Positions 30,869 to 47,483 of a stretch of DNA of 64,000 nt are shown here, one piece after another (within the stretch, counting starts at the first letter, position 1; each line of letters starts with the position of its first letter). Both the position numbers and the translations under genes were made by a program. This stretch comes from Candidatus Limnocylindria bacterium (lineage in GTDB: Bacteria > Chloroflexota > Limnocylindria > P2-11E): the NCBI GenBank assembly GCA_035708565.1, contig DASSSF010000058.1, forward strand, positions 2,704-66,703, in the 5' to 3' direction. Under the pieces are notes generated by a model. It worked only from the letters and a program-made list of their open reading frames with translations. It did not search any database and was not told the DNA's origin.

Positions 30869-31896
30869 GCGAGCTTCTCCGCCACGGCGCGCCGCTCGGT
30901 GCCGACGAGCTCGGCCACGGCCTTCCAGCGGATGCACCGCGCGTCGTGCTCGGGCGTGTCGACCGGAATGAGCGCGGGCTCCTCGCGCTTGCAGGCGTCG
31001 ATGACGAGCGGGCAGCGCGGGTGGTACGTGCAGCCGTGCGGGAGCCGGACGAGGTCGGGCGGCGAGCCCGGGATCGAGGCGACCGAGCCGAGCGCGCCGG
31101 AGACCCGCGGCACCGCGCGCAGGAGGCCCACGGAGTAGGGGTGCCGCGGCCGGTAGAAGAGATCGCTCACGCTCGCACGCTCCACGGCGCGGCCGGCGTA
31201 CATCGTGAGGACGCGGTCGGCGAGCTCCGCCGCGAGCGACAGGTCGTGGGAGATGAAGATCGTCGCGAAGCCGAGCTTCGCGCGGAGGTCCCGCAGGAGG
31301 TCGATGATCGCGCGCTGCGTGAGGATGTCGAGCGCCGTCGTCGGCTCGTCGAAGATGACGAGCTGTGGCCGGAGGAGCAGCGCCACGGCGATGCAGACGC
31401 GCTGGCGCATGCCGCCCGAGAGCTCGTGCGGGTACGCGCGCAGGACCCGGCCCGCGTCGAGATGCACGAGGTCGAGGAGCTCGCGGGCGCGGTCGCGGAC
31501 CTGGCGCGCGTCGCGCATGCCGTGCGCCCGCGCCGTGTCGAGGAACTGGTCCCAGATGGTGAGCACCGGGTTGAAGGAGTTGAGCGCCGCCTGGAACACC
31601 ATCGCGCACTCGCGCCAGCGCCAGCGGCGCAGCTCGTCCGGCTCCATCGTCCGCACGTCCTCGGTGCTCCCGTCCGCCGCCGTGTACAGGATCCGCCCGC
31701 TCGTGACGTGCGCGGCGCGCGAGAGCCCGATGAGCGCGACGGCCAGCGTCGTCTTCCCGGATCCGCTCTCGCCGATGATCGCGAGCGTCTCGCCGCGCGA
31801 GACCGTGAAGGAGACCTCGCGCACCGCGCGGGCCGGTCCGCGCCGCGTCGGGTACTCGACGGAGAGGTCGTCGACGGCGAGGACGGGCGCGGTCAC
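30865..31896 (-). CDS. Peptide ABC transporter ATP-binding protein (OppD/DppD-like)
   Basis: Walker A 'GESGSGKTT', 'LSGGMRQR', C-terminal 'CTYHPRCP'. Confidence 0.9.
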   Translation of the reverse strand: MTAPVLAVDDLSVEYPTRRGPARAVREVSFTVSRGETLAIIGESGSGKTTLAVALIGLSRAAHVTSGRILYTAADGSTEDVRTMEPDELRRWRWRECAMVFQAALNSFNPVLTIWDQFLDTARAHGMRDARQVRDRARELLDLVHLDAGRVLRAYPHELSGGMRQRVCIAVALLLRPQLVIFDEPTTALDILTQRAIIDLLRDLRAKLGFATIFISHDLSLAAELADRVLTMYAGRAVERASVSDLFYRPRHPYSVGLLRAVPRVSGALGSVASIPGSPPDLVRLPHGCTYHPRCPLVIDACKREEPALIPVDTPEHDARCIRWKAVAELVGTERRAVAEKLA

Positions 31897-32795
31897 GAGC
31901 GGCGCAGGCGCGGGTCGAAGATGTCCTCGAGCGCGGACACGAAGAACACGAGCGACAGCTGGAAGAGGACGATCATCGCGATCGGGCTCGCGATCGACAA
32001 GAACGAGTCGCGGAAGTACAGGGCTCCCTGGTTCACCGCGAAGTAGATCGTGATCGCCCAGTTCTTCCCGGAGAGCGGCACGAGGCCGAGCACGACGAGC
32101 CCGACGATCAGGTAGATCGCCGCGGTCACGCCGAGGATGAAGTGGATGACGATGTACGAGCGCATGTTCGGGAGGATCTCGCGGAAGACGATGTGCGGGA
32201 GGCCGAGGTCGAGCGCGCGCGCCGCCTCGATGTAGTCGCGCTCCCGGAGCGAGAGGACCTGCGCGCGGATCTGCCGCAGGAGCGCCGACCACGTGAGCGC
32301 CGCGAGGAGCAGCGCGAGGACGACCACGCCGTCCGGGCGCAGCAGCGCGGCCGCGACCACGAGCACGGGGAAGTGGGGGATCGTGAGGACGACGTCGTTG
32401 ACCGCGACGATCACGGCGTCGACCTTGCCGCCGACGGTCGCGGCGATCGCGCCGAGCGCGACGGCGGTGAGCGTGGAGAGGAAGCCCGTGAGCGCCGCGG
32501 TGACGAGGATCTCCCTCCCGCCGTGCACGAGCTGGTTGAGCACGTCGCGTCCCGCGTAGTCGGTGCCGAGCGGGTGCGCCGCGGACGGCCCCTGGTACAC
32601 GGCGGTCACGTCCGTCGCGTCGAGGACCGGGACGAAGACCGGCACGACGAGCGCGAACAGGATGAAGAAGACGATCCCGGCGAGGCCGAGGAGCCCGACC
32701 GGGCGGCGGGAGAGGAGCCGGAGGAAGTCGACGGTCGACTCGACCCAGCCGGGGAGCGCGCGAGCGGCGCCGATGCCGGCGGCCGCCGCGGTCAT
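31893..32795 (-). CDS. Peptide ABC transporter permease (OppC/DppC-like)
   Basis: Internal ATG. EAA-like loop 'YIEAARALDLG'. Confidence 0.9.
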   Translation of the reverse strand: MTAAAAGIGAARALPGWVESTVDFLRLLSRRPVGLLGLAGIVFFILFALVVPVFVPVLDATDVTAVYQGPSAAHPLGTDYAGRDVLNQLVHGGREILVTAALTGFLSTLTAVALGAIAATVGGKVDAVIVAVNDVVLTIPHFPVLVVAAALLRPDGVVVLALLLAALTWSALLRQIRAQVLSLRERDYIEAARALDLGLPHIVFREILPNMRSYIVIHFILGVTAAIYLIVGLVVLGLVPLSGKNWAITIYFAVNQGALYFRDSFLSIASPIAMIVLFQLSLVFFVSALEDIFDPRLRRS

Positions 32796-33901
32796 CCGGA
32801 CGCACCCCCCGGCCGGCCGATCCGCGGGTCGATCTTGCTGTAGACGAGGTCCGCCACGAGGTTCGCGACCACGACGGAGGCCGTGATGACGAGGAGGATG
32901 CCCTGCATCACCGGGTAGTCGCGCTGGGCGATCGCGCGGTCGAGGCGGTAGCCGACGCCCGGATAGACGAGCAGCGTCTCGATGAGGATCGAGCCGCCCA
33001 CGATGAACCCGGCCGCGATGGCGAGCTGCTGGACGAGGGGGAGGATCGCGTTGCGGCCGACGTAGGCCGTGGTGATCCGCGCGTCGGACAGCCCGCGGGC
33101 GCGCGCGGCGGCGACGTAGTCCTCCTCGAGCGAGCCGAGGGTCGCGCTCTTCATCGAGAGGACCCAGTGTCCGATGTGGACGAGGAAGAACATCAGGATC
33201 GGCAGCGAGGCGTGGTACAGGACGTCGCCGATGAACTCGAGCGTGAAGCCCGGCGCGATCCCGGGCGTGGTCGCGCCCCGCATCTGCGCGACCGGCAGCC
33301 AGCGCAGCTGCACGCCGAAGACGACGATGATCATGACCGCGAGCAGGTACGGCTGGATCGACGAGACGATCGACGAGCCGGTCACGAAGAGGTTGTCGAA
33401 CCAGCCGCCGCGGCGGTACGCCGCGACGAGCCCGATGAGCACGCCGACGATGAACGAGAGGAACGTCCCCACGCCCACCGCGAGGATGGTCCACGGGAGG
33501 ACGGCGAGGATGATCGAGGACACCGACGTGCCCGACGAGAGGAACGAGGCGCCGAGGTCGCCGCGCGCGAGGTGCTCGAGGAACGAGAGGTACTGCTCGT
33601 GGACGGGCGCGTCGAGGTCGATCGCGATGAGCGCGCCGACCATGCCGCGCGCCTCCTCGTAGGTCATCGCGCCGTCGCGGGTGAGCTCCTCGATCTTGAT
33701 GTCCACGGGGCTTCCCGGCATGAGACGGATCAGGCCGAACGTGAGCGTCGTCGTGATCCAGATCGTGAGCACGGCCTTCGTGAGCGCCCGCATCGCCGGC
33801 GACCGCCAGGTGCGGCCCAGCCAGCGGCCCGCGGTGCGATAGCGACCGTACGGGAACGTCTGGGCATCGAGCCTCGCACCGGCGGGGCCCGCGGTCGTCA
33901 C
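32792..33901 (-). CDS. Peptide ABC transporter permease (OppB/DppB-like). An alternative start is at 33793.
   Basis: BPD_transp_1 core 'EDYVAAARARGLS'. GTG at 33901 gives a 4-nt overlap with the HAD gene. Confidence 0.85.
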   Translation of the reverse strand: MTTAGPAGARLDAQTFPYGRYRTAGRWLGRTWRSPAMRALTKAVLTIWITTTLTFGLIRLMPGSPVDIKIEELTRDGAMTYEEARGMVGALIAIDLDAPVHEQYLSFLEHLARGDLGASFLSSGTSVSSIILAVLPWTILAVGVGTFLSFIVGVLIGLVAAYRRGGWFDNLFVTGSSIVSSIQPYLLAVMIIVVFGVQLRWLPVAQMRGATTPGIAPGFTLEFIGDVLYHASLPILMFFLVHIGHWVLSMKSATLGSLEEDYVAAARARGLSDARITTAYVGRNAILPLVQQLAIAAGFIVGGSILIETLLVYPGVGYRLDRAIAQRDYPVMQGILLVITASVVVANLVADLVYSKIDPRIGRPGGASG

Positions 33902-34563
33902 GCCCCGGAGGTTAGCGCCACGAGGTCCTCGATCCGGAGGTCGGCAAGCGAGGACACGCGCAGGTCCGCCGGCGAGAGGTCGAGGCGTGCGGTGAGCGCG
34001 TTCGGCACGGCGACCACGCGCATCCCCGCCGCCTTCGCGGCGAGGACGCCGTTACGGGAGTCCTCGAGCGCGACGGCTTCGTGGGCCGCGACGCCGAGCG
34101 CGGCGAGCGCGGCGAGGTAGAGGTCGGGGGCGGGCTTCGCCCGCATCCCCTCCTCCCGGCAGACGATCGCGTCCCAGTGCTCGCGGAAGCCGAACCGGTC
34201 GAGGTGGCCGCACACCCACGCGTCCGACGAGCTCGACGCGACCCCGAGCCGAAGGCCGCGGCCGCGCGCGGCGTCCACGAGCTCGCGCACGCCGGGCATG
34301 AGGTCGAGGCGCAGGATCATCTCGGTCCGCCGCGCGTTCCGGCGCGCGCGGATCGCCTCCCAGTCGTGGTCGCCGGCGACGCGCTCGCGCAGGTAGGCGA
34401 GCGCGTCGAACCAGCCGCCCTCGCGTCCCAGGTAGTCGAACCACTTGTCGAGCGGGAGCTCCTCGCCGTGCTCCCGGTAGATCTCGGCCCAGGCCGTGTA
34501 GGACGGCGTCTCCGTCTCGAGGAGGAGCCCGTCGAAGTCGAAGACGAGCGCGCGCAGGCTCAC
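33898..34563 (-). CDS. HAD-IA family hydrolase (beta-phosphoglucomutase / phosphatase-like)
   Basis: GTG start. Motif I 'LVFDFDGLL', motif III/IV 'ALEDSRNGVLAAKAAGM'. Confidence 0.8.
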   Translation of the reverse strand: MSLRALVFDFDGLLLETETPSYTAWAEIYREHGEELPLDKWFDYLGREGGWFDALAYLRERVAGDHDWEAIRARRNARRTEMILRLDLMPGVRELVDAARGRGLRLGVASSSSDAWVCGHLDRFGFREHWDAIVCREEGMRAKPAPDLYLAALAALGVAAHEAVALEDSRNGVLAAKAAGMRVVAVPNALTARLDLSPADLRVSSLADLRIEDLVALTSGA

Positions 34564-35910
34564 CGCTGCGTCGCGTACCCCCGGTAGAGGCGCGCCGTCG
34601 CGCGCAGCGCCTTCCGGTAGTTCGCGAGGACGATGTGCTCGTTCGGCGCGTGCGCGCCCGCGCCGGGGTGGGCCATGCCGAGCGTCACGTTCGCGAGCCC
34701 GCCGCGGTGGCAGACCTCCCACATCGGGCTCGTCCCGCCGCTCGTGGGCACGAGCATCGCCTCCTTCCCGTACGCCTCCTCGGCGGCCGCCTTCGCCGCG
34801 CGCACGAGCGGGTCGTCCCGGCGCCCGCGGTACGGGCGCGTGCCTTCCTTGCCCTCCACCTCGACGTCGCCGAAGCCGCGCCGGTCGAGGTGCGCGCGGA
34901 GGAGCGCCTTCACGCGGGCCGGGTCCTGGTCGGGCACGAGGCGGAAGTCGATCTTGCACGACGCGACCGACGGGAGGACCGTCTTCGTGCCGTCGCCCGT
35001 GAAGCCGCTCACGATCCCGTCGATGTTGCACGTTGGCTCGAACTGCGCGCGGATCCGCGCCTCGCCGTCCGCGATCCCGAAGGCGAACCGCTCGATGCCG
35101 AAGATGCGCTTGATCTCCTCGGCCTCGAACGGGAGCGACGCGACGTGCGCGCGCTCCTCGGCCGTCGGCTCGCGCACGTCGTCGTAGAAGCCGTCGATGA
35201 GGATCCGCCCGCGCTCGTCCATGAGCGTCGAGAGGGCGTTCACGAGGCGCCAGGCCGCGTTCGGGAGGTACGTCGCGCCGCCGGAGTGCGCGTCGACCGC
35301 GAGCGTCCGCACGCGCAGCTCGACGTAGCAGATCCCCTTTCCGCCGAGGAGGAGCTGGGGCCGGCCGGTGCTGTCGATGCCGCCGCCCTCTTTCAGAGCG
35401 GCTGTCCCATCCGTCAGCCGAGGATCGCTCTGGAGCATGCGTGCGAGGTTCGGGCTCCCCGACTCCTCCTCGCCCTCGATGAGGAACCGCACGCGTATGC
35501 CGAGGTCGCCGAACGCGGCGCGGTGGGCCTCGAGCGCCTGGATGCGCAGGAGCAGGTGCCCCTTGTTGTCGTCCGCGCCGCGCGCGTAGAGCGCGCCGTC
35601 GCGGACGGCCGGCTCGTACGGCGGCGTGCGCCAGAGCTCGAGCGGGACGGCGGGCTGCACGTCGTAGTGCTGCACGCAGATGAGCGTCCGCTGCCCGGCG
35701 CCGATCTCGCCGACGACGAGCGGTGGGACGCCGTCCACGCGGATGAGGCGCGCCTCCGCGCCCGCTGCGCGCAGCCGCTCCGCGCACCAGGCCGCCGCGG
35801 ACTCGAGCGCGGCGGGAGCGTCCGCCTCGGACGGGATCGCGCAGAGATCGCGCAGCTCGTCCGTGTAGCGCTCTCTCCGCTCGTCGATGAAGCGCGCCAG
35901 GGCATCCGTC
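34560..35910 (-). CDS. M20 family metallopeptidase (dipeptidase / carboxypeptidase type)
   Basis: GTG at 35910 with a 'gggagggg' SD. Metal site 'ADDNKGHLL' and 'EGEEESGSPN'. Confidence 0.85.
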
Positions 35911-35939
35911 ACGTACCCACCCCTCCCTAGACTGCCGCC

Positions 35940-38900
35940 ATGCCGGAGGAGCGCAAGTTGGCGACCATCCTCTTCGCCGACATCGTCGGCTCGACCGAGA
36001 CCGGCGCGGCCCACGATCCCGAGGTCGTCCGCCGCGAGCTGTCGCGCGCGTTCGCGGAGATGAGACAGATCCTCGAGCGGCACGGCGGGACGGTGGAGAA
36101 GTTCATCGGCGACGCCGTCATGGCGGTGTTCGGCGTCCCCGTGGCGCACGACGACGACGCCGACCGCGCCGTCCGTGCCGCCTTCGCGCTCCGTGACCGG
36201 ATCGCGGCGCTCAGCGCCGGCGGCCGGATCCCCCTCGAGCTGCGGCTCGGCCTGAACACGGGGCAGGTCGTCGCGGGCACTGGTGGCGAGACGCTCGTCA
36301 CCGGTCCCGCGGTGAACGAGGCCGCGCGCCTGCAGCAGGCCGCGGCGTCGGGTGAGATCCTCGCGGGTGCGCTCACGCGCCGGCTGACCTCCGGCGGCGT
36401 CGAGTACGGACCGGTGCGCCGCGTCGAGGCGAAGGGTGTCGGCGAGCTGGAGGTCGCGCCGGCGGAGCGGCTCGCCTCGGCGGTCCCCGAGCAGCATCGC
36501 GGCATCGCGGGCCTCCAGGCGCCGCTGATCGGTCGCGACGAGGAGCTGCGCCTGCTGGTCGACGCGTACCGGAAGGTCGAGCGGGAGGAACGCGCGAGCC
36601 TTGTGACGATCTACGGCGACGCCGGTGTCGGCAAGTCGCGCCTCGTGCGGGAGCTCGTGGAGGCGCTCGGCGACGCCCGCGTGCGAAGAGGCCGCTGCCT
36701 GCCGTACGGCGAGGGCATCACCTTCTGGCCCGTCGTCGAGATCCTCCGCGCTGACGCCGGTATCACCGCGCAGGACACGTACGAGCAGGCGACGCTCAAG
36801 CTCCGCGCGGCGGTGCTCGCGGCGTTCGGCGAGGCGACCGACGACGCCGACGCCGTCGCGCGGCGGCTCGCCGTCCTCGCCGGCATCGCGCGGGCCGAGG
36901 ACGCCCTGCCCGAGGTCGCGGCCGACGGCGTACCGAACGAGCTTCGCTGGGGCCTCCGGCGCTACGTCGAGCTCCGGGCCGCCGACGAGCCGCTGACGCT
37001 CGTGTTCGACGACATCCAGTGGGCCGAGCCCGCGCTCTACGGGCTCATCGAGCACCTGGCCGAATGGACGCGCGCGCCCGCGTTCCTTGTCTGCCTCGCG
37101 CGTCCCGAGATGCGTGAGCGGCGGCCGGGATGGGGAGGCGGCCTCCTCAACGCGGCGGCGATCCGGCTCGATCCGCTGTCCGAGGACGAGTCGCGCCGGC
37201 TCATCGCCCGGCTGCTCGACATCGACGACCTTCCCGAGGGCGTTCGCGCGGAGGTCGTGCGGCGAGCGGAGGGCAACCCGCTCTACGTCGAGGAGTTCCT
37301 GCGCATGCTCATCGACGCCGGAGGCGTGGCCCGGCGCGGGGGCCGGTTCGTCGCCACGGCGTCCCTCGCGGAGCTCGAGGTCCCGCCGACGCTCCGTGGC
37401 CTCATCGCCGCGCGTCTCGACGCCGCACCGGCGGCGGTGAAGCACGCGCTGCAGCGGGCCTCGGTCGTGGGCAAGGTCTTCTGGCCGGAGGCCGTGGCCG
37501 CGCTCGGCGGGGTCGAGGGCCGGGCCGACGACGTCCTCCTCGAAGCCGCGCGCCGCGAGCTCGTCGCCGAGCTGGACGAGCGTGGCCCCGGCGGCGGCCG
37601 CGCCTGGACGTTCAGGCACATCCTCGTCCGCGACGTCGCCTATGTGTCCCTACCGAAGGAGGAGCGTTCGCGCGCGCACGACTTGTTCGGCCGCTGGCTC
37701 GAGGCCGCAGCCGGGGCGCGCCTGGATGAGTACGCGGACATCGTGGCCTACCACGCGGAGCAGGCGTTCCTCCTCGCCCACGAGCTCGGCGACCCCGCCG
37801 CCGCCGACCTCGGACGCCGCGCGCTCGAGGGGCTCATGGCGGCCGGACGAAAGGCGCGGCAGCGCGCCGACGCGCATGCGTCGCTCGCGTTCCACCGCCG
37901 CGCCCAGGCGATCGCGCAGGCGACCGCCGCGCCGGCGGCCGAGCGCGTGGCGGCGGCCGGCCTCGCCGCGTCGGCGCGTCTCCAGATCGAGAGCAGCGAC
38001 GAGGCGCTCGCGGAAGTGCGGGCGCTGCTCCCCGAGGCGCGGGCCGCGGGTCCGAGCGAGGCGCTCGTGGCCCTGCTCGTCGACACGAGCTTCCGCACGT
38101 TCGACGACAAGGAGCAGGCGTTCGCGCTCGATCGCGAGGCCGTGGAGGTCGCGCGTGCGCTCCGTGACCCGGAGACGATCGCGTTCGCCCTGTTCCAGTC
38201 GTCTTGGACGCCATGGGGCGTGGGCGATCTCGACATGCAGCGGCGCTGTCTGCTCGACGCCCTCGAGCACATGCGCGCGAGCGGGGCACGCCGCATGGAG
38301 TTCGGGTGCCTCGCCTGGCTCGCGAACAACGGGTACATGCGTGGCGACTTCGCGGCCGCGCACGCGTACCACGAGGAGGCGGCGCGGCGTGTCGCCGAGG
38401 GCAGCTCGCCGCTGCAGCGGATGTTCCTCACGCGGCAGCGCGGGGGATGGGCGTTGTCGAGGGGCGATCTCGCGACGGCCGCTTCGCTCGAGCGCGACCA
38501 GCTCCGCCAGGCGCAGGACCTCGGGCTACGGAGCCAGATCGGCGTCGCCCACATGTGGCTCGCGAGGGTGCTCCGGGACTCCGGCGACCTCGCCGCCGCC
38601 CGCGCCGCGCTCGAGAGCGCGGTGGCGATGCTCGCTCCTGCCGCGGAAGTGGCGTTCCGCGCCGAGGCCCGCGCGCAGCTCGCCCGGGTGTGCGTCGCGA
38701 TGGGCGACCTCGAGGAGGCGCGCGCGCAGGCGGATACGGCGCGTGCCGAGGTCGAGGCGGATGACGCGTTCACGCAGTGCACGAGCCGGAGCGCGCTCGC
38801 ACAGGTACGCGCGTTCGAAGGTCGGGCCGTCGAGGCCGAGGGTCTGTTCCGGGAGGCGCTCGAAGGCATCGCGCGGACGGGCTACCGCGCGCTCCACGCG

Positions 38901-39077
38901 GAGTACCGGCGCGACTACGGCGCCTTCCTTCTCGACCAGGGACGCGTCGCGGAAGCGCGCCGGGAGCTCGAGGCCGTGCGCGCGTTCTTCGGCTCGGACC
39001 TCGTCGCGCTCGAGCGGGACAAGACCGACGCGCTCCTCCGTCGTGCGGCGGAGGCCGAGAAGGCGGCTCGTCGCTAG
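35940..39077 (+). CDS. Class III adenylate/guanylate cyclase domain + AAA/STAND ATPase + TPR/helical repeats (1045 aa). Paralog of 17245..20544.
   Basis: 'LATILFADIVGST...FIGDAVMAVFGVP' CHD. Walker A 'GDAGVGKSRL'. Confidence 0.85.
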   Translation: MPEERKLATILFADIVGSTETGAAHDPEVVRRELSRAFAEMRQILERHGGTVEKFIGDAVMAVFGVPVAHDDDADRAVRAAFALRDRIAALSAGGRIPLELRLGLNTGQVVAGTGGETLVTGPAVNEAARLQQAAASGEILAGALTRRLTSGGVEYGPVRRVEAKGVGELEVAPAERLASAVPEQHRGIAGLQAPLIGRDEELRLLVDAYRKVEREERASLVTIYGDAGVGKSRLVRELVEALGDARVRRGRCLPYGEGITFWPVVEILRADAGITAQDTYEQATLKLRAAVLAAFGEATDDADAVARRLAVLAGIARAEDALPEVAADGVPNELRWGLRRYVELRAADEPLTLVFDDIQWAEPALYGLIEHLAEWTRAPAFLVCLARPEMRERRPGWGGGLLNAAAIRLDPLSEDESRRLIARLLDIDDLPEGVRAEVVRRAEGNPLYVEEFLRMLIDAGGVARRGGRFVATASLAELEVPPTLRGLIAARLDAAPAAVKHALQRASVVGKVFWPEAVAALGGVEGRADDVLLEAARRELVAELDERGPGGGRAWTFRHILVRDVAYVSLPKEERSRAHDLFGRWLEAAAGARLDEYADIVAYHAEQAFLLAHELGDPAAADLGRRALEGLMAAGRKARQRADAHASLAFHRRAQAIAQATAAPAAERVAAAGLAASARLQIESSDEALAEVRALLPEARAAGPSEALVALLVDTSFRTFDDKEQAFALDREAVEVARALRDPETIAFALFQSSWTPWGVGDLDMQRRCLLDALEHMRASGARRMEFGCLAWLANNGYMRGDFAAAHAYHEEAARRVAEGSSPLQRMFLTRQRGGWALSRGDLATAASLERDQLRQAQDLGLRSQIGVAHMWLARVLRDSGDLAAARAALESAVAMLAPAAEVAFRAEARAQLARVCVAMGDLEEARAQADTARAEVEADDAFTQCTSRSALAQVRAFEGRAVEAEGLFREALEGIARTGYRALHAEYRRDYGAFLLDQGRVAEARRELEAVRAFFGSDLVALERDKTDALLRRAAEAEKAARR

Positions 39078-39080
39078 GAC

Positions 39081-40505
39081 CTAGAGCTTCTTCACTTCCG
39101 CGACGAGCTGGGTGAGCACCTCTTTCGCGTCGCCGAAGACCATCTGCGTCTTCGGGTCGAGGTAGAGCTCGTTGTCGATGCCGGCGAAGCCCGGCCGCAT
39201 GCTGCGCTTGACGACGAGGACGTTCTCGGCCTTGTCGACGTCGAGGATCGGCATCCCGTAGATCGGGCTGCTCTTGTCGGCGCGCGCCGCGGGGTTCGTC
39301 ACGTCGTTCGCCCCGATGACGAGCGCGACGTCGGTCCGCGGGAACTCGGGGTTGATGTCGTCCATCTCGACGAGCTGCTCGTACGGCACGTTCGCCTCCG
39401 CGAGGAGCACGTTCATGTGGCCCGGCATGCGGCCCGCGACCGGATGGATCGCGTACTTCACCGTGGCGCCCTTCTCCTGGAGGAGGTCCGCGAGCTCGCG
39501 CACGCCGTGCTGCGCCTGCGCGACCGCGAGCCCGTAGCCCGGGACGATGACCACCTGCCGCGCGTACGCGAGGAGCGCGGCCGCGTCCTCGGGCGTCGCG
39601 GTGCGCGACGTCCTGCCGTCGTCCGCCCGGCCGGCCGAGCCCGCGGCGGCCGCCGCGCCGAACGCGCCGAAGAGCACGTTCCCGAGCGACCGGTTCATCG
39701 CCTTCGACATGAGGCGCGTGAGGATCGTGCCGGACGCGCCGACGAGCGTCCCCGCGATGATCAGGAGCTGGTTCCCGAGGACGAACCCGGCCGCCGCGAC
39801 CGCGAGGCCGGTGTACGCGTTGAGGAGCGAGATGACGACGGGCATGTCCGCGCCGCCGATCGGCAGCACGAGCGTGACGCCGAAGATGAGCGCGAGCACG
39901 AGCGCGGCCCAGAGGAGCGTCTGGCCCGGCAGCACCTCGGTGCCGAACGCGACGCCCCAGAGGATGAGGATCGCGGCGAGGAGCATGCCGCCGAACACGA
40001 TGGCCGTGAGGGCGCGCTGGAACGGGTAGCGGTACGCGCGCGGGTCGATGACGCCCTGGAGCTTCGAGAACGCGACGAGCGATCCCGAGAACGAGACGGC
40101 GCCGATCATCAGCGCCAGCAGGATGCTGATCGGCACCCCGATGCCCTCGAAGCCGTGCCCGGTCGACGGGTCGGTGTCGTGGAGGAACTCGAGGATCGAG
40201 ACGACGGCCGCGGACCCGCCGCCCGCGCCGTTGAAGAGGGCGACCATCTGCGGCATCGCGGTCATCGGGACGGCCCGCGCGCCGTAGACGCCGATCGCCG
40301 TGCCCACGGCCATCCCCGCGACCACGACGGCCCAGTTCACGTTCTCGAGGACGAAGAACGTCGCGGCGAGCGCGAGGAGCATGCCCGCGGCCGCGATGCG
40401 GTTGCCGAGCACGGCCGTCTTCGGCCCGGAGAGGCCCTTGAGGCCGAGGATGAACGTCACCGCGGCGACGAAGTACGCGATCGCGACGAGCGTCTCCCGG
40501 TCCAT
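39081..40505 (-). CDS. pntB: NAD(P) transhydrogenase subunit beta
   Basis: 474 aa with a multi-TM N-terminus and the NADP(H)-binding domain III 'GYGLAVAQAQH...GANDVTNP'. Confidence 0.9.
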   Translation of the reverse strand: MDRETLVAIAYFVAAVTFILGLKGLSGPKTAVLGNRIAAAGMLLALAATFFVLENVNWAVVVAGMAVGTAIGVYGARAVPMTAMPQMVALFNGAGGGSAAVVSILEFLHDTDPSTGHGFEGIGVPISILLALMIGAVSFSGSLVAFSKLQGVIDPRAYRYPFQRALTAIVFGGMLLAAILILWGVAFGTEVLPGQTLLWAALVLALIFGVTLVLPIGGADMPVVISLLNAYTGLAVAAAGFVLGNQLLIIAGTLVGASGTILTRLMSKAMNRSLGNVLFGAFGAAAAAGSAGRADDGRTSRTATPEDAAALLAYARQVVIVPGYGLAVAQAQHGVRELADLLQEKGATVKYAIHPVAGRMPGHMNVLLAEANVPYEQLVEMDDINPEFPRTDVALVIGANDVTNPAARADKSSPIYGMPILDVDKAENVLVVKRSMRPGFAGIDNELYLDPKTQMVFGDAKEVLTQLVAEVKKL

Positions 40506-40795
40506 CAGCGCTTCGGCCTCCGGCCGAACATCTGGAGCATCCGGTCGGTCACGACGAAGCCGCCGACGACGTTCACCGTGCCGAGGACGACGCCGAGGAA
40601 TCCGAGGAGCGTCCCGAGCGGGCCCGGCACGGCCGACGCGACGAGGAGCGCGCCGATGACGATGATCCCGTGGATCGCGTTCGCTCCGGACATGAGCGGC
40701 GTGTGGAGCGTCGACGGCACCTTCGAGATCACCTCGAAGCCCACGAAGACCGCGAGGACGAAGATGTACGCGCCGAGGAGCGCCGTCTCGCTCAT
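40505..40795 (-). CDS. pntAB: NAD(P) transhydrogenase subunit alpha part 2 (membrane domain)
   Basis: 96 aa with 3 TM and 'HTPLMSGANAI' conserved. TGATG coupling to pntB. Confidence 0.85.
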   Translation of the reverse strand: MSETALLGAYIFVLAVFVGFEVISKVPSTLHTPLMSGANAIHGIIVIGALLVASAVPGPLGTLLGFLGVVLGTVNVVGGFVVTDRMLQMFGRRPKR

Positions 40796-41904
40796 GCCTT
40801 CTCCACGACGCCGCGGACCTGCTCGTTGACGATCTTCCCCTCGTGCGTGACGAAGGCGCCCTTCGCGATCTCGTCCGCGAGGTCCACCTTCAGCGCCCCG
40901 TCCTTCATGAGGTACTGGAGGAGCGACGTCACGTTGCGCGAGTAGAGCTGGCTCGCGTGGTAGGGGACCGTGCTCGGGAGGTTGGTCTCTCCGACGAGCG
41001 TGACCCCGTCCTTCACCACGACCTTGCCCGCCTCCGTGCCCTCGACGTTCCCGCCGGCCTCGGCGGCCATGTCGACGATCACGCTGCCCGGCCTCATCGC
41101 GCGGACGGTGTCCGCGGTGACGAGGACGGGAGCCTTCCGTCCGGGCACGAGCGCCGTCGTGATCACGACGTCCGCGGCGCGCACGCGCTCGGCCATGAGC
41201 TCGCGCTGCTTCTGCTGCTCCTCCGGCGTGAGCTCGCGCGCGTAGCCGCCGCTGCCCTCGGCCTTGATGTCGATCTCGATGAACTTCGCGCCGAGGCTCT
41301 GGACCTGCTCCTTCACGACGGGGCGCGTGTCGAACGCCTCGACGACCGCGCCGAGGCGCCGCGCGGTCGCGATCGCCTGGAGCCCCGCGACGCCCGCGCC
41401 GATGACGAACACGCGGGCCGGCGTCACGGTGCCGGCGGCCGTGGTGAGCATCGGGAAGAAGCGCGGCAGGTGCTCGGCCGCGAGGAGCACCGCTTTGTAG
41501 CCGCCGATGTTGCTCTGCGACGACAGCGCGTCCATCGGCTGGGCGCGGGTCGTGCGCGGGATCGTCTCCATCGCGATCGCCGTCACGCCCTTCTGCGCGA
41601 GCGTTCGCACGAGCGCGTGCTGCGTGAGGGGCTGGAGGAGGCCGATGAGCGTGACGCCCGAGCCGAGGCGTTCCATCTCGGCGTCGGTCGGCCGCTGGAC
41701 CTTCGCGACGATCTCAGCCGCGTACGGATCGCCGATCGTCGCGCCCGCCTGCTCGTACTCCGCGTCGGTGAAGCCCGCCGAGGTCCCGGCAGCGCGCTCG
41801 ACGACCAGGTCGAGCCCCGCGCGCTTCAGGTCGCGGATCGATCCGGGCACGACGGCGACACGCCGTTCGCCGGGCATGGTCTCTCGGGGGACGCCGATCC
41901 TCAT
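40792..41904 (-). CDS. pntAA: NAD(P) transhydrogenase subunit alpha part 1 (NAD(H)-binding, AlaDH-like)
   Basis: 'MRIGVPRE...' and Rossmann 'VFVIGAGVAGLQA'. Confidence 0.9.
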   Translation of the reverse strand: MRIGVPRETMPGERRVAVVPGSIRDLKRAGLDLVVERAAGTSAGFTDAEYEQAGATIGDPYAAEIVAKVQRPTDAEMERLGSGVTLIGLLQPLTQHALVRTLAQKGVTAIAMETIPRTTRAQPMDALSSQSNIGGYKAVLLAAEHLPRFFPMLTTAAGTVTPARVFVIGAGVAGLQAIATARRLGAVVEAFDTRPVVKEQVQSLGAKFIEIDIKAEGSGGYARELTPEEQQKQRELMAERVRAADVVITTALVPGRKAPVLVTADTVRAMRPGSVIVDMAAEAGGNVEGTEAGKVVVKDGVTLVGETNLPSTVPYHASQLYSRNVTSLLQYLMKDGALKVDLADEIAKGAFVTHEGKIVNEQVRGVVEKA

Positions 41905-41965
41905 TGGGTGCGACGAACGCTAGCAGGGATGCGCCGCGCGCGTTCGGTCGCGCCCGCGCGCTCTC

Positions 41966-43840
41966 TTAGCCGACGAGCCCGAGCGCGCGCCAGAAGGGGA
42001 TCGCCACGACGATCGCGGCGAGCCGGATCGCGAGGAGCGCCGCGCCCATGACCGTGCCCTGCCGGTCGTCGAACGCCTCGCGCCCCGTCGCCTCCCGGTA
42101 CATCAGGTACTCGAGGCCCTGGTAGGGGAGGATCCACATGTTCGCCATGAGGAGCACGACGATCCCCGCGACCCACCCGCTGATCCCGAGCGCCGGCGCG
42201 GCCGGAACGAACGCGAGGATGAGGAGGAACATCGTCGGCCTGCTCGGGAGCACGATGCGGCTCACGGCGGTGACGAGCGCGATCGCGATGACCGACACCT
42301 CCGGGCCAAGGGCCGCGACCGGCGCGATGCCGCCGGCGACCCACTTGTCGACGCCGCTCCGGCCGAGGACCTCGCCGGAGCCGAGGAGCACGCCGAAGAG
42401 GATGAGGAAGCCCCAGTCGATCCCGGTGCGGAACTGCGTCCGGTCGAGGACCGTGCCGGTGACGACGACGAGCGCGGCGAGCGCGACCCACGCGGGCTCG
42501 ATGCCGAGCGCGCGCTGCGCGGCGAGCCCCGCGATGAGCACGGCGACGGCCGCCGCCGTGACGACCTCGCCGCGGGTGATCGGACCGAGCACGGCGCGCT
42601 GGCGCGCGAGCGCGTCTCCGCGGATGGTGCCCTCGCGCTCCGGGCGGAACAGGAAGAGGAGCACGACGAGGCTGCCCGCGAAGCACGCGACGCCGACGGG
42701 TGCCGCCGCGACGAGCCACGTCGTCCAGTCGAACCGGGCGCGCTCCGCCGGCGTGAGCAGGTCGAGCAGGTAGAAGTTCGTCGCGAAGCCGGTCAGGAAG
42801 ATGTTGCTGAAGTACCAGTAGCCGATGAGGCCGGCGAAGGCGAGGCCGGCGCTGCCGCGCGAGCGCGCCTCGTAGCCGAAGGCCTGTCCGAGCTCGCGCG
42901 TCACGCGCGCGATCGCCGCCACGCGCGCGACGGAGACCGGCACGAGGGGCGTGATGACCGCTCCGCCCGCGAGGAGCGCGAGCACCTGGCCGCGGTAGGT
43001 CGCCGGGAACGCGCGGAGCGATGTGAGCGCCGCGCGGAAGAGCAGACCCGTACCGGCCATCGCCGCGGCGACGGCGAGGACGCCGAGCACGAGGAGCCAC
43101 GAGGTGCTCGTGAACCCGGCGAAGACCACGGCGGCCGGAGCGAGGCCGAGCACGCCCCACGCGGTCGCGAGCGCGACCGCGACGGCGAAGTCGGGGATCA
43201 CGTCCACGGTCCACGCGATCGACGCGCCGCCCAGGACCAGGAGCGCGTGCCAGCCCTCCGTCGAGAGGCCCGCCGGCGCCGGGAGCGCCCAGAGGAGCGC
43301 CGGCACCGCGAAGGACAGCGCGGCCGCGGCCGCGCGCCGGCGCGAGCCGCCGCGCCCCCGGGATGACGCAGTGACGACGGGCCTGCTCTCCGTGGTCGGG
43401 AGCGGCGCGCCGATGAGCCCGCGCTGCCGGCGGTCGAGGAGCTCGGCGAGGGAGCGCGCGACGACGAGCCCGACGTCGGGGCGCTCGCGCACCAGGTCCT
43501 CGAAGCGCGCGCGCGGGAGACGCCAGAGGAGCGCGTCGGTCGACGTGCGCGCGGTCGCCGTGCGGCGGTCGAGGAGCATGCCGAGCTCGCCGAACTGCGC
43601 CGGCGCTTCGACCTCGGCGACCTGGACGTCGCCGTCCTCCGACGCGATCGTGAGCGTCACGCAGCCCTGCGCGAGGAGGTAGAGCGCGTCGGCGGCCTCG
43701 CCCTCCTTCATCACGAGCGCGCCGCCCGGCACGTGCCGCTCCTCGAGCGCGCCGGCGAGCCGCGCGAGCGTCACGCGGTCGAGCCCGCTGAAGAAGGGGA
43801 CGGTGCGGAGGAGGTCCTCGGGCGCGACGGCGGAGGCTAT
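41966..43840 (-). CDS. Cyclic-nucleotide-binding domain fused to a multi-TM anion/ion-transporter-superfamily (DASS/ArsB/CitMHS-like) permease. The start is uncertain.
   Basis: In-frame reading of ORF 41966..45502. CNB 'LLRTVPFFSGLD...FGELGML...RTATARTSTDALLWRL', then about 12 TM. There is no ATG/GTG/TTG before the CNB. ATA at 43840 overlaps the upstream TAG stop (ATAG). Confidence 0.7.
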   Translation of the reverse strand: MASAVAPEDLLRTVPFFSGLDRVTLARLAGALEERHVPGGALVMKEGEAADALYLLAQGCVTLTIASEDGDVQVAEVEAPAQFGELGMLLDRRTATARTSTDALLWRLPRARFEDLVRERPDVGLVVARSLAELLDRRQRGLIGAPLPTTESRPVVTASSRGRGGSRRRAAAAALSFAVPALLWALPAPAGLSTEGWHALLVLGGASIAWTVDVIPDFAVAVALATAWGVLGLAPAAVVFAGFTSTSWLLVLGVLAVAAAMAGTGLLFRAALTSLRAFPATYRGQVLALLAGGAVITPLVPVSVARVAAIARVTRELGQAFGYEARSRGSAGLAFAGLIGYWYFSNIFLTGFATNFYLLDLLTPAERARFDWTTWLVAAAPVGVACFAGSLVVLLFLFRPEREGTIRGDALARQRAVLGPITRGEVVTAAAVAVLIAGLAAQRALGIEPAWVALAALVVVTGTVLDRTQFRTGIDWGFLILFGVLLGSGEVLGRSGVDKWVAGGIAPVAALGPEVSVIAIALVTAVSRIVLPSRPTMFLLILAFVPAAPALGISGWVAGIVVLLMANMWILPYQGLEYLMYREATGREAFDDRQGTVMGAALLAIRLAAIVVAIPFWRALGLVG

Positions 43841-44748
43841 GCGCCCTCGCGGCGCTGGACATGGCGCGGATCCAGCGCGTCCCGAAGGCCGTCGCCGATG
43901 AAGTTGATCGAGACGACCGCGAGGAAGATCGCGAGCCCTGGGAAGACGGCGAGCCAGGGGGCCTTGTCCATGTCGCTCGTCGCGTCGCGCAGCATGTTCC
44001 CCCACGACGGCGTCGGCGGCTGGATGCCGAGGCCGAGGAACGACAGCGTGCTCTCGCTGATGATCGCGCTCGCGACGCCGAGCGTCGCCGCCACGATGAT
44101 CGGGGCGAGCGAGTTCGGCAGCAGGTGGCGCAGGATGATGCGCCGGTCGCCCGCGCCGATCATCCGCGCCGCGACGACGAACTCGCGCTCCTTGAGGGAC
44201 AGGAACTGCGCCCGCACGAGGCGCGACGTCGTCATCCAGGAGAGCAGCCCGAGGACGATCACGACCACGGTCACCGTCATGCCCTTGAAGAAGACGCCGA
44301 AGAGGATGAGCAGGAACAGGCGCGGGAAGGAATACATCATGTCGACGAGCCGCATGAGGACGGAGTCGATCCAGCGCCCGTAGTACCCCGCGACCATCCC
44401 GACGAACGTCCCGAACGAGATCGCGACCGTGACCGCGAGGAACCCGACCGCGAGCGAGACGCGGCCTCCGTAGAGGATGCGCGTCGCGAGGTCGCGCCCG
44501 AGGCTGTCCGTGCCGAACGGGTGCACCGGCGACGGCGGCTCGTAGATGTCGAGGAGCCGCGTGCGCTCGGGGTCGTACGGCGAGACGAGCGGCGCGGCGG
44601 CGGCGAGCAGCGCGAGCGCGACGAGCACGAAGATGCTGACGAGCGCGAGGCGGTGCGCCATGAACCGCTCCGCAGCCAGCCGCCACTGGCTTCGCGGCTT
44701 CGCGACCGGTGCCGCGAGGGCTCCTGGCTTGAGAGCGATGTCCGCCAT
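43837..44748 (-). CDS. Peptide ABC transporter permease (DppC/OppC-like)
   Basis: 303 aa with the 'EFVVAARMIGAG' EAA loop. Confidence 0.9.
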   Translation of the reverse strand: MADIALKPGALAAPVAKPRSQWRLAAERFMAHRLALVSIFVLVALALLAAAAPLVSPYDPERTRLLDIYEPPSPVHPFGTDSLGRDLATRILYGGRVSLAVGFLAVTVAISFGTFVGMVAGYYGRWIDSVLMRLVDMMYSFPRLFLLILFGVFFKGMTVTVVVIVLGLLSWMTTSRLVRAQFLSLKEREFVVAARMIGAGDRRIILRHLLPNSLAPIIVAATLGVASAIISESTLSFLGLGIQPPTPSWGNMLRDATSDMDKAPWLAVFPGLAIFLAVVSINFIGDGLRDALDPRHVQRREGA

Positions 44749-44751
44749 GGC

Positions 44752-45705
44752 TCAGCTGAACCTGATCCGCGGGTCGAGGTAGCCGTAGAGGACGTCCGCC
44801 ACGAGGTTCGACAGCACGATGAGCGTGCTCGAGACCGCGAGGATCCCCTGGAGCACCGGGTAGTCGGAGCGCGTCGCCGCGTCCCAGAACAGCCGGCCCA
44901 TGCCGGGCCAGCCGAAGATCTGCTCGGTCACGAGCGCGCCGACGAAGAGCTCGGGCAGGTCCAGGGCGACGATCGTCACGAGCGGGATCGCCGCGTTCTT
45001 GAGCGCGTGCCGCAGCACGAGGACGCGCTCCGAGAGCCCCTTCGCCCGCGCGGTGCGCATGAAGTCCTGGCCGATCGTCTCGAGCATCGACGCGCGCAGG
45101 TAGCGCACGTGGCCGCCGACCTGGACGAGCGAGAGCGTCATCACCGGGAGGATCAGATGCCGCACGCGGTCCCCGATGTCCTGCTCGAGCCCCGGAGTGC
45201 TCATGCCGCCGAGCGGCAGCCAGCGGAGCTGCAGGCCGAACACGATGATCAGCAGCAGCCCGAGCCAGAACGTGGGCGTGGACAGGAACGCGAACGTCGC
45301 GCCCGTGACCGCGTGATCGAAGACCGAGTACTGCTTCACGGCGGTCATCACGCCGATCGGGATCGCGAGCAGCAGCACGACGACGAACACCGTGCCCATG
45401 AGGTAGATCGTGTTCGGCAGGCGCTCGCCGATGAGCTGGAGCACCGGCTGGTGGCTCGCGAACGAGTAGCCCCAGTCGAGCCGCAGGAAGTTGCCGATCC
45501 ACGCGAGGTACTGGACCGGGAGCGGCTGGTCGAGGCCGAACGCCTTCTCGAGCCGGAGGCGGTCCGCCTCGGTGAAGTCGGGGTTGCCCTCGTACGCGGC
45601 GAGGGGCCCTCCCGGGGTGAACTTGAGGATCGCGAACGAGACGACGCTGATCGCGAAGAGCAGCGGCAGCGCCTGGATCAGCCGCCTGACCACGTACCGA
45701 CCCAT
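44752..45705 (-). CDS. Peptide ABC transporter permease (DppB/OppB-like)
   Basis: 317 aa with 'FMRTARAKGLSER'. Confidence 0.9.
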   Translation of the reverse strand: MGRYVVRRLIQALPLLFAISVVSFAILKFTPGGPLAAYEGNPDFTEADRLRLEKAFGLDQPLPVQYLAWIGNFLRLDWGYSFASHQPVLQLIGERLPNTIYLMGTVFVVVLLLAIPIGVMTAVKQYSVFDHAVTGATFAFLSTPTFWLGLLLIIVFGLQLRWLPLGGMSTPGLEQDIGDRVRHLILPVMTLSLVQVGGHVRYLRASMLETIGQDFMRTARAKGLSERVLVLRHALKNAAIPLVTIVALDLPELFVGALVTEQIFGWPGMGRLFWDAATRSDYPVLQGILAVSSTLIVLSNLVADVLYGYLDPRIRFS

Positions 45706-45736
45706 GGCGCTGCCGCTCCCTGCTACTTCTTCTTCG

Positions 45737-47440
45737 CTATTTCTTGAGGTACCAGTCCTCGGTGTTCCAGGTGAATCGCTGCCACGTATTGGCCTTCCAG
45801 CCGCGGAGCTCGACGCTGCGCGCGTCGAGGTCCTGCCGGTCGTACAGCCACACGATCACGTACGCCGCGTTGAGCTGCTTCATTGCCGTCGCGTACGCCT
45901 GCTTCCGCTTGTCCTGGTCGAGCGTCGCGCCGGCCTCCTCGATCGCCTTGTCGGCGACCGGGTCCTTGAACCGCGTGTAGTTCTGGCCGGAGCAGTCCGC
46001 GCGCGTCGGGATGTTCTTCGAGTGGTAGCGCGGGAAGATCGTCGAGTGCGGGTCGATGCCCGGCGACGAGGCGTAGATGAGCATGTCGAACGTCCCGAGC
46101 TTGCGCGGGTCCTTGCCGGTGCACGAGCCCGACAGGATCACGCTCGACGGCTGGTTCTGGATCTTCACCTCGATGCCGATGGCCTTGTACTCGTCCACGA
46201 GCACCTGCTGCACGCGCTCGCGCAGCTGGTTGCCCGAAGTGGTCGCGAGCGTGAGGGACGCGCGGACCCCGCCCTTCGAGCGGATGCCGTCCCCGCCCTT
46301 CGCCCAGCCCGCCTTGTCGAGCGTCTCGTTCGCCTTCTTCTGGTCGTAGGCCTCCTGCGGCTCGCGGTACGCCGCCCAGCCCTGCGAGACCGGGGACGTG
46401 CCCGGCTTGCCCTTGCCGAAGAGGAGCTTGTCGATGAGCTGCTGCTTCGGCGTCGCGTAGAGGATCGCCTTGCGGACCTCGATGTCACCGAGGACCGGGT
46501 GGACGCTGTTCGGGTCGGTGAACTCCTCGTTCTTCGCGGTGTTCAGCTCCATGCGCTCGACGCTCGGGCCGGGGACGGCCTGGAGCGCGAGCTTGGGCTC
46601 CTTCTCGACCTCGGGCGTCTGGGACTCGGTGAGGTTCCACATCGCGTGGACCTCGCCGGCCTTGAGCTGCGCGATCGCGACCTCGCTCGACGGCACGCTC
46701 TTGAACACGATCTTGTCGAGGTATGGCTTGTCGGGCGCGCCGCGGTAGTTCGGGTTCTTCTCGAGCGTGATCGAGTCGCCGGCCTTGAAGTCGGCGACCT
46801 TGAACGGGCCGGTGCCGATCGGCTTGCGGACGTACTCGGTCTTCGAGATGTCCGCTTCCTTCTCGAGGAGGTGCTTCGGCATGAGCGCGGGGCTCGTGCC
46901 CCCGAAGTTCAGCGGGTACGGGGCGTAGATCGACTTGTAGTGGACGACCGCCGTCAGCTCGTTCGGCGTGTCGATCGACTCGATCTCCGAGAAGCCCGTC
47001 CGGTTGTTCACCTTGGGGTCCTTCATCGTGATCTCCCAGGTGAACTTGATGTCGGCGCTCGTCACCGGGGCGCCGTCCGACCACTTGAGGCCGGGCTTGA
47101 GCTCCCACGTGACGTCGAGCTTCGTTCCCTTCACGACCGCGCCGCCGTTCCCGACCGTCGGGATCCGCGTCGCGAGCGTCGGCACGTACTCGCCCTCGTT
47201 CGTGGTCTCGGCCAGGCCCTCGAGGACGCCGTAGTTCACGATGTCGGTGACCGTCTGGTTCGCGTAGTGCGGGGCGAGCGTGGATGGCTCCTGCCAGATC
47301 GCGACGATCGCGGTGCCTCCCCTGACCGGCGCTTCCGCCGGGCCGGTCGGCGCGCCGGTGGCGCCCCCACCGGTCGGCGCCGGCGCGCATGCGGACGCGG
47401 CGAACGCCAATGCCGAGATAAGAGCGAGCGCCCTCTTCAT
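45737..47440 (-). CDS. ABC transporter substrate-binding protein, family 5, lipoprotein ('MKRALALISALAFAASAC')
   Basis: ATG 47440 with 'ggaggg' 4 nt upstream. SBP_bac_5 fold pattern. Confidence 0.9.
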   Translation of the reverse strand: MKRALALISALAFAASACAPAPTGGGATGAPTGPAEAPVRGGTAIVAIWQEPSTLAPHYANQTVTDIVNYGVLEGLAETTNEGEYVPTLATRIPTVGNGGAVVKGTKLDVTWELKPGLKWSDGAPVTSADIKFTWEITMKDPKVNNRTGFSEIESIDTPNELTAVVHYKSIYAPYPLNFGGTSPALMPKHLLEKEADISKTEYVRKPIGTGPFKVADFKAGDSITLEKNPNYRGAPDKPYLDKIVFKSVPSSEVAIAQLKAGEVHAMWNLTESQTPEVEKEPKLALQAVPGPSVERMELNTAKNEEFTDPNSVHPVLGDIEVRKAILYATPKQQLIDKLLFGKGKPGTSPVSQGWAAYREPQEAYDQKKANETLDKAGWAKGGDGIRSKGGVRASLTLATTSGNQLRERVQQVLVDEYKAIGIEVKIQNQPSSVILSGSCTGKDPRKLGTFDMLIYASSPGIDPHSTIFPRYHSKNIPTRADCSGQNYTRFKDPVADKAIEEAGATLDQDKRKQAYATAMKQLNAAYVIVWLYDRQDLDARSVELRGWKANTWQRFTWNTEDWYLKK

Positions 47441-47483
47441 CTGTCCCTCCACAGCCCTCGTGGCAGGCGGCCATTATTGACCG

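Follow-up and report, generated by a model that had tools for sequence, protein, structure and literature searches.

The 64-kb window analysed here (64,000 nucleotides (nt) of contig DASSSF010000058.1 of Candidatus Limnocylindria bacterium, with a G+C content of ~72%) contains, at positions 41966..43840 of the minus strand, a gene whose predicted product combines an N-terminal domain of the type that binds cyclic nucleoside monophosphates (cNMPs), the CNB domain, with a transporter domain of the DASS/SLC13 type. This gene, CNB-DASS, directly follows three genes of a peptide-type ATP-binding cassette (ABC) importer that has no ATPase genes of its own. The locus stands out most for a conserved trait of CNB-DASS, which has no canonical start codon. 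Considering all the data together, we regard it as fairly probable that CNB-DASS was inserted in the ATPase-less peptide importer unit, that this unit uses the ATPases OppD1/OppF1 in trans, that the transporter is under the control of a cNMP, and that its translation starts at a non-canonical NTA codon in a way coupled to the termination of the preceding gene.

The gene order proposed by the first-pass annotation of this window, in which a substrate-binding protein (SBP) and two permeases are followed on the minus strand by a transporter with an N-terminal CNB domain, was confirmed gene by gene with the use of Pfam, as was the two-domain architecture of the last product (cNMP_binding and Na_sulph_symp). 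The first gene of the ATPase-less unit, SBP2 (45737..47440), encodes a family-5 (peptide/nickel/opine type) substrate-binding lipoprotein. Its frame, 45737-47452(-), matches SBP_bac_5 (PF00496) with 270.9 bits, and the ATG at 47440, already chosen in the first-pass annotation, is the better start and is followed by the lipobox-like AASAC; the N-terminus, MKRALALISALAFAASAC, is lipoprotein-like. The ABC permease OppB2 (44752..45705) matches BPD_transp_1 (146 bits) and BPD_transp_1_N, and the ABC permease OppC2 (43837..44748) matches BPD_transp_1 and OppC_N, and exceeds the cut-off of the NCBIfam model Opp4C (365 bits vs. 350). A family-5 SBP is thus combined with OppB- and OppC-type permeases, as in importers of the Opp/Dpp type. 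The full conserved frame of CNB-DASS comprises 624 codons, and the deposited start is the GTG at 43774 (602 amino acids (aa)). The protein is 100% identical to P0001, annotated as "SLC13 family permease [Candidatus Limnocylindria bacterium]" and encoded on a 71-kb contig of a metagenome-assembled genome (MAG).

The transporter domain of CNB-DASS (residues ~163-624; 41969..43354, minus strand) matches Na_sulph_symp (PF00939) with 109.9 bits at a cut-off of 27, over residues 174-622 and positions 8-471 of the 472 in the Pfam model. This match is overlapped by a CitMHS match of 54.7 bits, while no ArsB match was obtained at E<=0.01. The best transporter matches in a phmmer search of the sequences of solved structures were chloroplast DiT1 (E 2.9e-9) and DiT2.1 (E 4.3e-7). 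The AlphaFold2 model, built on 41 homologues (predicted local distance difference test (pLDDT) 84.7, predicted template-modelling score (pTM) 0.80), has the SLC13/INDY fold, which is characterised by scaffold and transport domains and two re-entrant hairpins. In the Foldseek comparison with the PDB, it was superposed on AtDiT2.1 (9mcu) with a TM-score of 0.85 (normalised on the target) and a root-mean-square deviation (rmsd) of 3.0, on NaCT with TM-scores of 0.82-0.83, and on VcINDY with 0.79-0.84. An assignment to ArsB was rejected, as 10tp appeared only at rank 35 of the fold search, with an rmsd of 8.3, and an assignment to CitMHS was rejected as well, DASS being favoured by Pfam, the DiT1 sequence match and the fold search alike. 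Of the "DASS/ArsB-superfamily permease" of the first-pass annotation, the DASS half is therefore upheld by Pfam and fold, and the ArsB half is not. Judging from sequence, the domain is a divergent branch of the DASS family. In VcINDY, Ser-Asn-Thr motifs are present at the tips of both hairpins. N355 and N567 of CNB-DASS, invariant among the 41 homologues, are located in FLTGFATNF and MANMW, which align to FLTAMAANP and LSNLM of DiT1. With the same degree of confidence as the whole explanation of which it is a part, the gene product may be described as a predicted DASS elevator-type transporter of an anion or carboxylate, nearest to DiT and INDY proteins.

The cytoplasmic CNB domain (residues ~8-143; 43412..43819, minus strand; PF00027) consists of N-terminal helices, a beta-barrel and a long C-helix, which in the model comprise residues 7-12 and 22-31 (helices), 33-109 (strands of the barrel) and 121-143 (long helix). 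The cNMP_binding match covers residues 35-119 with 61.3 bits vs. a cut-off of 27.5. Among the sequences of solved structures, the best matches of this domain are regulatory subunits of PKA (E 4.6e-16), accompanied by CRP-like proteins. An Arg-rich linker between the CNB and DASS domains is modelled with low confidence (pLDDT <50 for its core residues 150-162). The phosphate-binding cassette, F83-G84-E85...R92-R93-T94-A95-T96-A97 (43550..43594, minus strand), appears intact: F83, G84, R92 and R93 are the same in all 41 homologues, and at least 90% of these keep E85 and T94. The RRTA motif does not tell cAMP from cGMP, as the cassettes of HCN, CNG and PKG proteins show. In the topology of VcINDY, the N-terminus of a DASS protein is cytoplasmic, which would place the CNB domain on the right side of the membrane for a cNMP sensor.

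Contrary to the first-pass statement that fusions of CNB domains with transporters are uncommon in bacteria, CNB-DASS proteins are numerous at metagenome scale. A first homology search yielded more than 120 proteins of ~626 aa and 55-60% identity, all with both PF00027 and PF00939, mostly from soil metagenomes and from MAGs of Limnocylindria or Chloroflexota. A wide scan of 1.84 billion cluster representatives (50% identity clusters) gave 427 matches at E<=1e-30; many of these are full-length (query residues ~8-623), with identity down to 24%, and both domains were present in 10/10 sampled representatives. One cluster member was named Xanthobacteraceae (a MAG; n=1). The first-pass annotation had also reckoned with a CNB-fused clade of known function; in a literature search of incomplete coverage, no paper describing or characterising a CNB-DASS/SLC13 fusion, and thus no characterised member, was found. 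As far as sequences tell, CNB-DASS is a large, diverse and experimentally uncharacterised family, normally encoded by a stand-alone gene. Among its distant members, P0247 and P0248 (~900 aa) have their CNB and DASS domains separated by a TPR segment, and P0296 (1005 aa) has a C-terminal Peripla_BP_6 domain. The C-terminus of DASS proteins is periplasmic in the topology of VcINDY, so that the latter domain would be on the correct side of the membrane.

Comparison of loci indicates that the association of CNB-DASS with a peptide importer is confined to one lineage. CNB-DASS loci were collected by an alignment-query metagenome scan (80 loci) and a single-protein query of genome contigs (3 loci); compared loci are designated by L-numbers. 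No OppB or OppC match was found in ~80 stand-alone loci (L002, L003, L007-L086; homologues 53-60% identical), and the called genes of L087 and L088 include neither OppB nor OppC. OppC2 lies directly upstream of CNB-DASS only in a sub-clade of at least 67% identity, formed by seven loci (the window, L004, L005, L006, L089, L096 and L097), in which OppB2 and SBP2 are also present upstream wherever the contig extends far enough. The coupling of this transporter to peptide uptake suggested by the first-pass annotation is thus not supported as a property of the family. Downstream of CNB-DASS, the loci of the sub-clade vary: the gene is followed by M20 on the same strand in L005, L089 and L097 (and then by HAD in L089), by a convergent cyclase gene, or by pnt genes. 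A search based on OppC2 yielded more than 100 homologues of 77-88% identity, among them loci that have no fusion gene. The order of genes in such loci is SBP2-B2-C2-M20 in L094/L095, SBP2-B2-C2-M20-SBP1 in L090, and SBP2-B2-C2 followed ~5 kb further on by B1-C1-D1-F1-SBP1 in L092/L093, the latter group having 60-71% identity to the second peptide operon of the window. OppB2 is 84-94% identical in L004, L005, L090, L094 and L095, and 73% in L092; for SBP2, the identity to the SBP in the corresponding position is 76-82% in L005, L090, L094 and L095, and 51% in L092. The position of CNB-DASS between OppC2 and the M20 dipeptidase gene is, on the evidence of gene order, a sub-clade-specific insertion. 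The presence of M20, the first gene of the second peptide operon, directly after C2 or CNB-DASS in relatives indicates that this operon and the SBP2 operon each represent one half of a single ancestral supercluster. The latter comprises two SBPs, two permease pairs, M20, the HAD hydrolase and a single OppD/OppF pair, and in the window it is interrupted three times, namely by CNB-DASS, pntAA-AB-B and the gene of a cyclase-AAA-TPR protein.

The strongest alternative to a functional link is that the adjacency is incidental, CNB-DASS being an independent cNMP-regulated carboxylate transporter tied to peptide uptake only by co-transcription. This possibility deserves consideration but seems to us less than probable. 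It agrees with the stand-alone position of the gene in ~80 loci, among such varied neighbours as MarR, TetR, fatty-acid oxidation and MFS genes, and with the variable downstream region within the sub-clade. However, at least seven independent assemblies retain the insertion, at 67-78% protein identity, and CNB-DASS has lost its own canonical start and overlaps the OppC2 stop, so that it now relies on the operon for its expression.

The CNB frame is open from the OppC2 stop to the GTG at 43774, without any ATG, GTG or TTG, and translation of the stretch upstream of this GTG gives ...APEDLLRTVPFFSGLDR, which corresponds to the conserved helix at the N-terminus of the CNB domain. The first codon of the conserved frame, ATA (43838..43840, minus strand), stands where stand-alone homologues have an ATG or GTG start and is the candidate non-canonical start; it is overlapped by the TAG stop of OppC2 (43839-43837, minus strand) and preceded, at a distance of 4 nt, by a Shine-Dalgarno-like GAGG (43845..43848, minus strand). 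The same geometry of the junction is found in the six other loci of the sub-clade, the seven originating from no fewer than five datasets. In 7/7 loci, the CNB frame is shifted by -1 from that of OppC2 and the OppC2 stop is TAG, the overlapping codon being ATA in the window and GTA in six, and GGAG is present 9 nt upstream of GTA in 6/6 of the latter. In 35/35 stand-alone homologues, an ATG or GTG is located 10-14 codons (mostly 11) upstream of the LLR motif, whereas no canonical start exists within 60 codons upstream of this motif in any of the seven sub-clade loci; their GTA and ATA, 10 and 9 codons upstream of it, respectively, occupy the homologous position. Over 25 codons of the sub-clade junctions, the ratio of non-synonymous to synonymous changes (pN/pS) is 0.21 in the CNB frame vs. 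2.5 and 6.0 in the other frames, and the variable columns number 6, 3 and 20 by codon position. The low ratio, confined to the CNB frame, indicates that this stretch is translated and under selection.

In relatives without the insertion, the TAG of OppC2 overlaps the GTG start of M20, reading TAGTG. At the CNB-DASS junction, the codon at the stop is none of ATG, GTG and TTG, as canonical stop/start coupling would have it, but GTA in six loci and ATA in one; the overlapping TAG fixes its third base as A, and a single change to GTG would therefore destroy the stop. With modest confidence, we favour initiation at the NTA codon, coupled to the termination of OppC2. Two trivial explanations were rejected. 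A sequencing or assembly frameshift (an ATG is present at 43862 in another frame) does not agree with the same junction in seven loci from at least five independent datasets. A canonical start farther upstream, inside OppC2, does not agree with the in-frame TGA of L089, which no ATG, GTG or TTG follows, and such a start is also absent from L005 and L096.

The use of an internal start, such as GTG 43774 in the window, would yield a truncated and possibly non-responsive CNB domain and an effectively constitutive transporter. We consider it improbable. The sub-clade loci differ in the position of the first canonical codon, hence the annotated lengths of 579-603 aa, and gene callers do use such codons for the sub-clade proteins; a start at the GTG of the window would leave the beta-barrel core matched by Pfam (residues 35-119) whole. 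In L004 and L096, however, the first canonical codon would cut off the first strands of the barrel. Moreover, the upstream stretch is under codon-level purifying selection in the CNB frame only, its length varies among loci by one whole codon, and in the model it forms the predicted helices 7-12 and 22-31 of the N-terminal helical segment.

Much less probable is a programmed -1 frameshift near the end of OppC2, which would produce an OppC2-CNB-DASS fusion and so tie the transporter physically to the ABC permease. The -1 relation of the frames in 7/7 loci and the absence of a canonical start would fit it. In type I ABC permeases, the C-terminus of OppC is cytoplasmic, and the CNB domain must be so too, so that both would be on the same side of the membrane. 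But no X_XXY_YYZ slippery site is present at the seven junctions within the 57 nt to which the in-frame TGA of L089 confines a frameshift, the codons preceding the stop vary among loci (AAG, ACG, GCA), RNAalifold indicates no conserved downstream structure (covariation term +2.61, compensatory changes in 2 pairs only), and the same -1 relation existed already at the ancestral OppC2/M20 junction (TAGTG). The lack of a slippery heptamer and of a covariation-supported structure makes a fusing frameshift unlikely.

A tblastn search of all 64 kb with both Opp ATPases detected ABC ATPase genes only at 29864-30901 and 30865-31920 (minus strand), i.e., OppF1 and OppD1 (ABC_tran and oligo_HPY) of the other peptide operon, where the first-pass annotation had placed the only ATPase pair of the neighbourhood. 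The absence of ATPase genes from the SBP2-OppB2-OppC2 operon, also noted there, is borne out by both Pfam and tblastn: no OppD/OppF-type pair with ABC_tran and oligo_HPY belongs to it. The operon is located more than 16 kb from each end of the window; ATPase genes just outside the window, with which the first-pass annotation had reckoned, could therefore not be members of the operon. The search for orphan opp operons in relatives proposed in that annotation revealed ATPase-less SBP2-B2-C2 in L090 (no ATPase gene within 10 kb), L092/93 and L094/95, and because these loci have no fusion gene, the absence of ATPases is older than the insertion of CNB-DASS. The option of an orphan importer borrowing ATPases in trans is consistent with these comparative data. 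As judged from gene order, SBP2-OppB2-OppC2 most likely uses OppD1/OppF1 of the sister half of the ancestral supercluster, now 12 kb away. In the case of sugar ABC importers, the use of shared ATPases encoded outside the transporter cluster is established (PMC9601137). The unit would hardly be a decaying remnant of an ABC operon stripped of its ATPase genes, a notion prompted by their lack, since its genes are intact, OppB2, OppC2 and SBP2 retain 73-94%, 77-88% and 51-82% identity, respectively, across many assemblies, and the ATPase-less arrangement is itself kept in at least five different contexts, the permease identities of 73-94% across loci indicating selection and not decay.

Genes of cyclic nucleotide synthesis recur in the genomic context of CNB-DASS. 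The window has two class III cyclase genes. One of them (35940..39077, plus strand) encodes a cyclase-AAA-TPR protein (Guanylate_cyc, AAA_16 and TPR; TOMM_kin_cyc-like match of 216 bits, under the cut-off). Its homologues are located convergently, directly after CNB-DASS, in L001, L004 and L006 (61-72% identity), and divergently, upstream of CNB-DASS, in L036 and L039 (32-33% identity); further cyclase genes are present near CNB-DASS in L018, L035 and L087. The second cyclase gene belongs to a trio upstream of SBP2 on the minus strand, identified by Pfam as a histidine kinase of 1969 aa with eight GAF domains (49956-55865), a single-domain response regulator (49584-49955) and a response regulator-class III cyclase (48463-49587). 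The trio also precedes SBP2 in L094, which is without CNB-DASS; in L095, likewise without it, the cyclase gene of the trio is the only one of the three within the locus, upstream of SBP2. The recurrence of cyclase genes and of genes of other CNB proteins (below) as neighbours speaks for regulation by a cyclic nucleotide of local origin, and control of CNB-DASS transport by a cNMP is plausible on these sequence data.

Other CNB proteins are encoded in these loci. In the window, a gene at 55917-58127 (plus strand) encodes an M50 (site-2 protease-like) membrane protein with two C-terminal cNMP-binding domains, which matches the NCBIfam model "daptide biosynthesis intramembrane metalloprotease" with 138.7 bits, under the cut-off. 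Its homologue of 61% identity is encoded ~2.7 kb upstream of the stand-alone CNB-DASS of L010. Small CNB-protein genes (possibly Crp-like) are located divergently, directly upstream of the stand-alone CNB-DASS, in L002 (826-1497), L010 (3569-3973), L013 (658-1062) and L016 (1494-1898).

A mechanism consistent with these data may be proposed. The CRP/PKA-like CNB domain would be joined to the DASS part by the long C-helix and the flexible Arg-rich linker; cAMP or cGMP made by the neighbouring cyclases would bind to the intact phosphate-binding cassette, and the bound cNMP would allosterically change transport by the DASS dimer. Translation of CNB-DASS would start at ATA (GTA in relatives) overlapping TAG, with coupling to OppC2 termination; the protein would thus appear only while the ABC operon is being translated, and probably in small amounts. 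SBP2-OppB2-OppC2 would be a functional importer that was ATPase-less before the insertion. A more elaborate version, in which a cNMP-gated DASS transporter is under double control, its synthesis being coupled through the NTA/TAG junction and its activity set by the kinase-regulator-cyclase circuit, is offered only tentatively and seems to us rather doubtful.

Several points weigh against this explanation. The match of the transporter domain to the NCBIfam model TIGR00785 ("dass") is of 92.6 bits, under the cut-off of 198.6. The Ser-Asn-Thr motifs of the hairpins read T-N-F and A-N-M, with the flanking Ser/Thr replaced, which leaves room for a substrate other than a classical dicarboxylate. In Escherichia coli, AUA initiates translation at ~1-2% of the AUG level, and codons outside the near-cognate set, GUA included, at 0.1-1% (bioRxiv 10.1101/063800); the weakness of such initiation implies low expression or the need for a lineage-specific feature. 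The proposed sharing of ATPases is read only from gene order, the identity between the two permease pairs, B1/C1 and B2/C2, is no more than 30-33%, and L090 shows that partner ATPases can be encoded elsewhere. The adjacency of cyclase genes is so far a raw list of loci. Finally, what is said here of the CNB-DASS family is read from sequences and a predicted structure.

The remaining genes of the window complete the picture of the split supercluster. Its second half (27813..35912, minus strand; Pfam, NCBIfam) comprises the M20 dipeptidase-like gene (34560-35912), HAD (33898-34620), OppB1, OppC1, OppD1, OppF1 and SBP1 (27813-29600). The GTG start of M20 at 35912 and the ATG of the divergent cyclase gene at 35940 are only 27 nt apart (35910-35942); transcription of the second half must therefore begin either in this very short spacer or inside the cyclase gene. 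The transhydrogenase genes pntAA-pntAB-pntB (39081..41904, minus strand; Pfam), located between CNB-DASS and the cyclase gene, begin 61 nt past the stop of CNB-DASS on the same strand. No Pnt match was found at this position in any related locus examined, and the pnt genes are an insertion specific to the window. Between the response regulator-cyclase gene and SBP2, an open reading frame (ORF) on the plus strand (47484-48035) has no Pfam or NCBIfam match and shares only 34% identity with its positional counterpart in L094. Rfam indicated no known RNA element across 27000-59000, and a scan of 38800-48600 was uninformative, with 0 promoter-like sites and terminator-like matches at the chance level.

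The conserved GTA or ATA first codon, fixed by the overlapping TAG, would, if confirmed, represent an unusual case of natural non-canonical initiation. It already affects annotation, as 21 to 45 residues of the sub-clade proteins are missing from present gene calls, which place the start inconsistently. Hardly any work exists on the direct control of bacterial secondary active transporters by cyclic nucleotides, and the CNB-DASS family, found in at least two phyla, offers a simple test case, with one polypeptide, a predicted near-DASS fold and a cNMP-binding motif that is intact. Furthermore, the locus provides an example of a peptide-type ABC importer stably kept without its own ATPase genes, for which a specific candidate partner pair is indicated.

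Among known systems, CNB-DASS is closest to the DASS transporters (TC 2.A.47/SLC13: DiT1, DiT2.1, VcINDY, LaINDY and NaCT), with which it shares the PF00939 match, the superposed predicted fold and the invariant N355 and N567 within stretches aligned to the hairpin motifs of DiT1. It differs from them in the N-terminal cNMP-binding domain, present in no solved DASS structure, in its score under the TIGR00785 cut-off and in the loss of Ser/Thr beside the hairpin Asn. The junction with OppC2 resembles canonical stop/start coupling (ATGA, GTGA, TAATG) in its four-base overlap and in the Shine-Dalgarno-like motif inside the upstream gene, but has GTA or ATA instead of ATG or GTG. As in the case of MsiK, MsmX and Clo1313_2554, an importer cluster without an ATPase gene would be served by an ATPase encoded elsewhere (PMC9601137). 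While those systems mostly concern sugars (CUT1) and a single homodimeric ATPase, SBP2-OppB2-OppC2 would depend on a heterodimer of OppD and OppF, which a sister permease pair of only 30-33% identity apparently uses as well.

The combination of a CNB domain and a membrane transport protein on one polypeptide is also known from MloK1 and SthK, whose CNB domains match that of CNB-DASS at E ~1e-8 to 1e-5. These are, however, tetrameric K+ channels with a C-terminal CNB domain, and CNB-DASS is a predicted secondary transporter, presumably of the dimeric elevator type, with the CNB domain at the N-terminus. MFS and ABC proteins with CNB domains occur in Mycobacterium tuberculosis. A 2023 review (PMC10710835) mentions fusions of CNB domains with MFS transporters only. 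Such CNB-MFS and CNB-ABC fusions follow the same "plug-in" regulatory logic, with a transporter superfamily other than that of CNB-DASS. In the yeast proteins Pho90 and Pho87, in turn, an N-terminal cytoplasmic sensor is joined to a dimeric transporter of the SLC13 fold, and Pho90 was among the fold matches of the CNB-DASS model (ranks 24, 34 and 40). The SPX domain, which serves as the sensor of these eukaryotic phosphate carriers in place of a CNB domain, binds inositol pyrophosphates.

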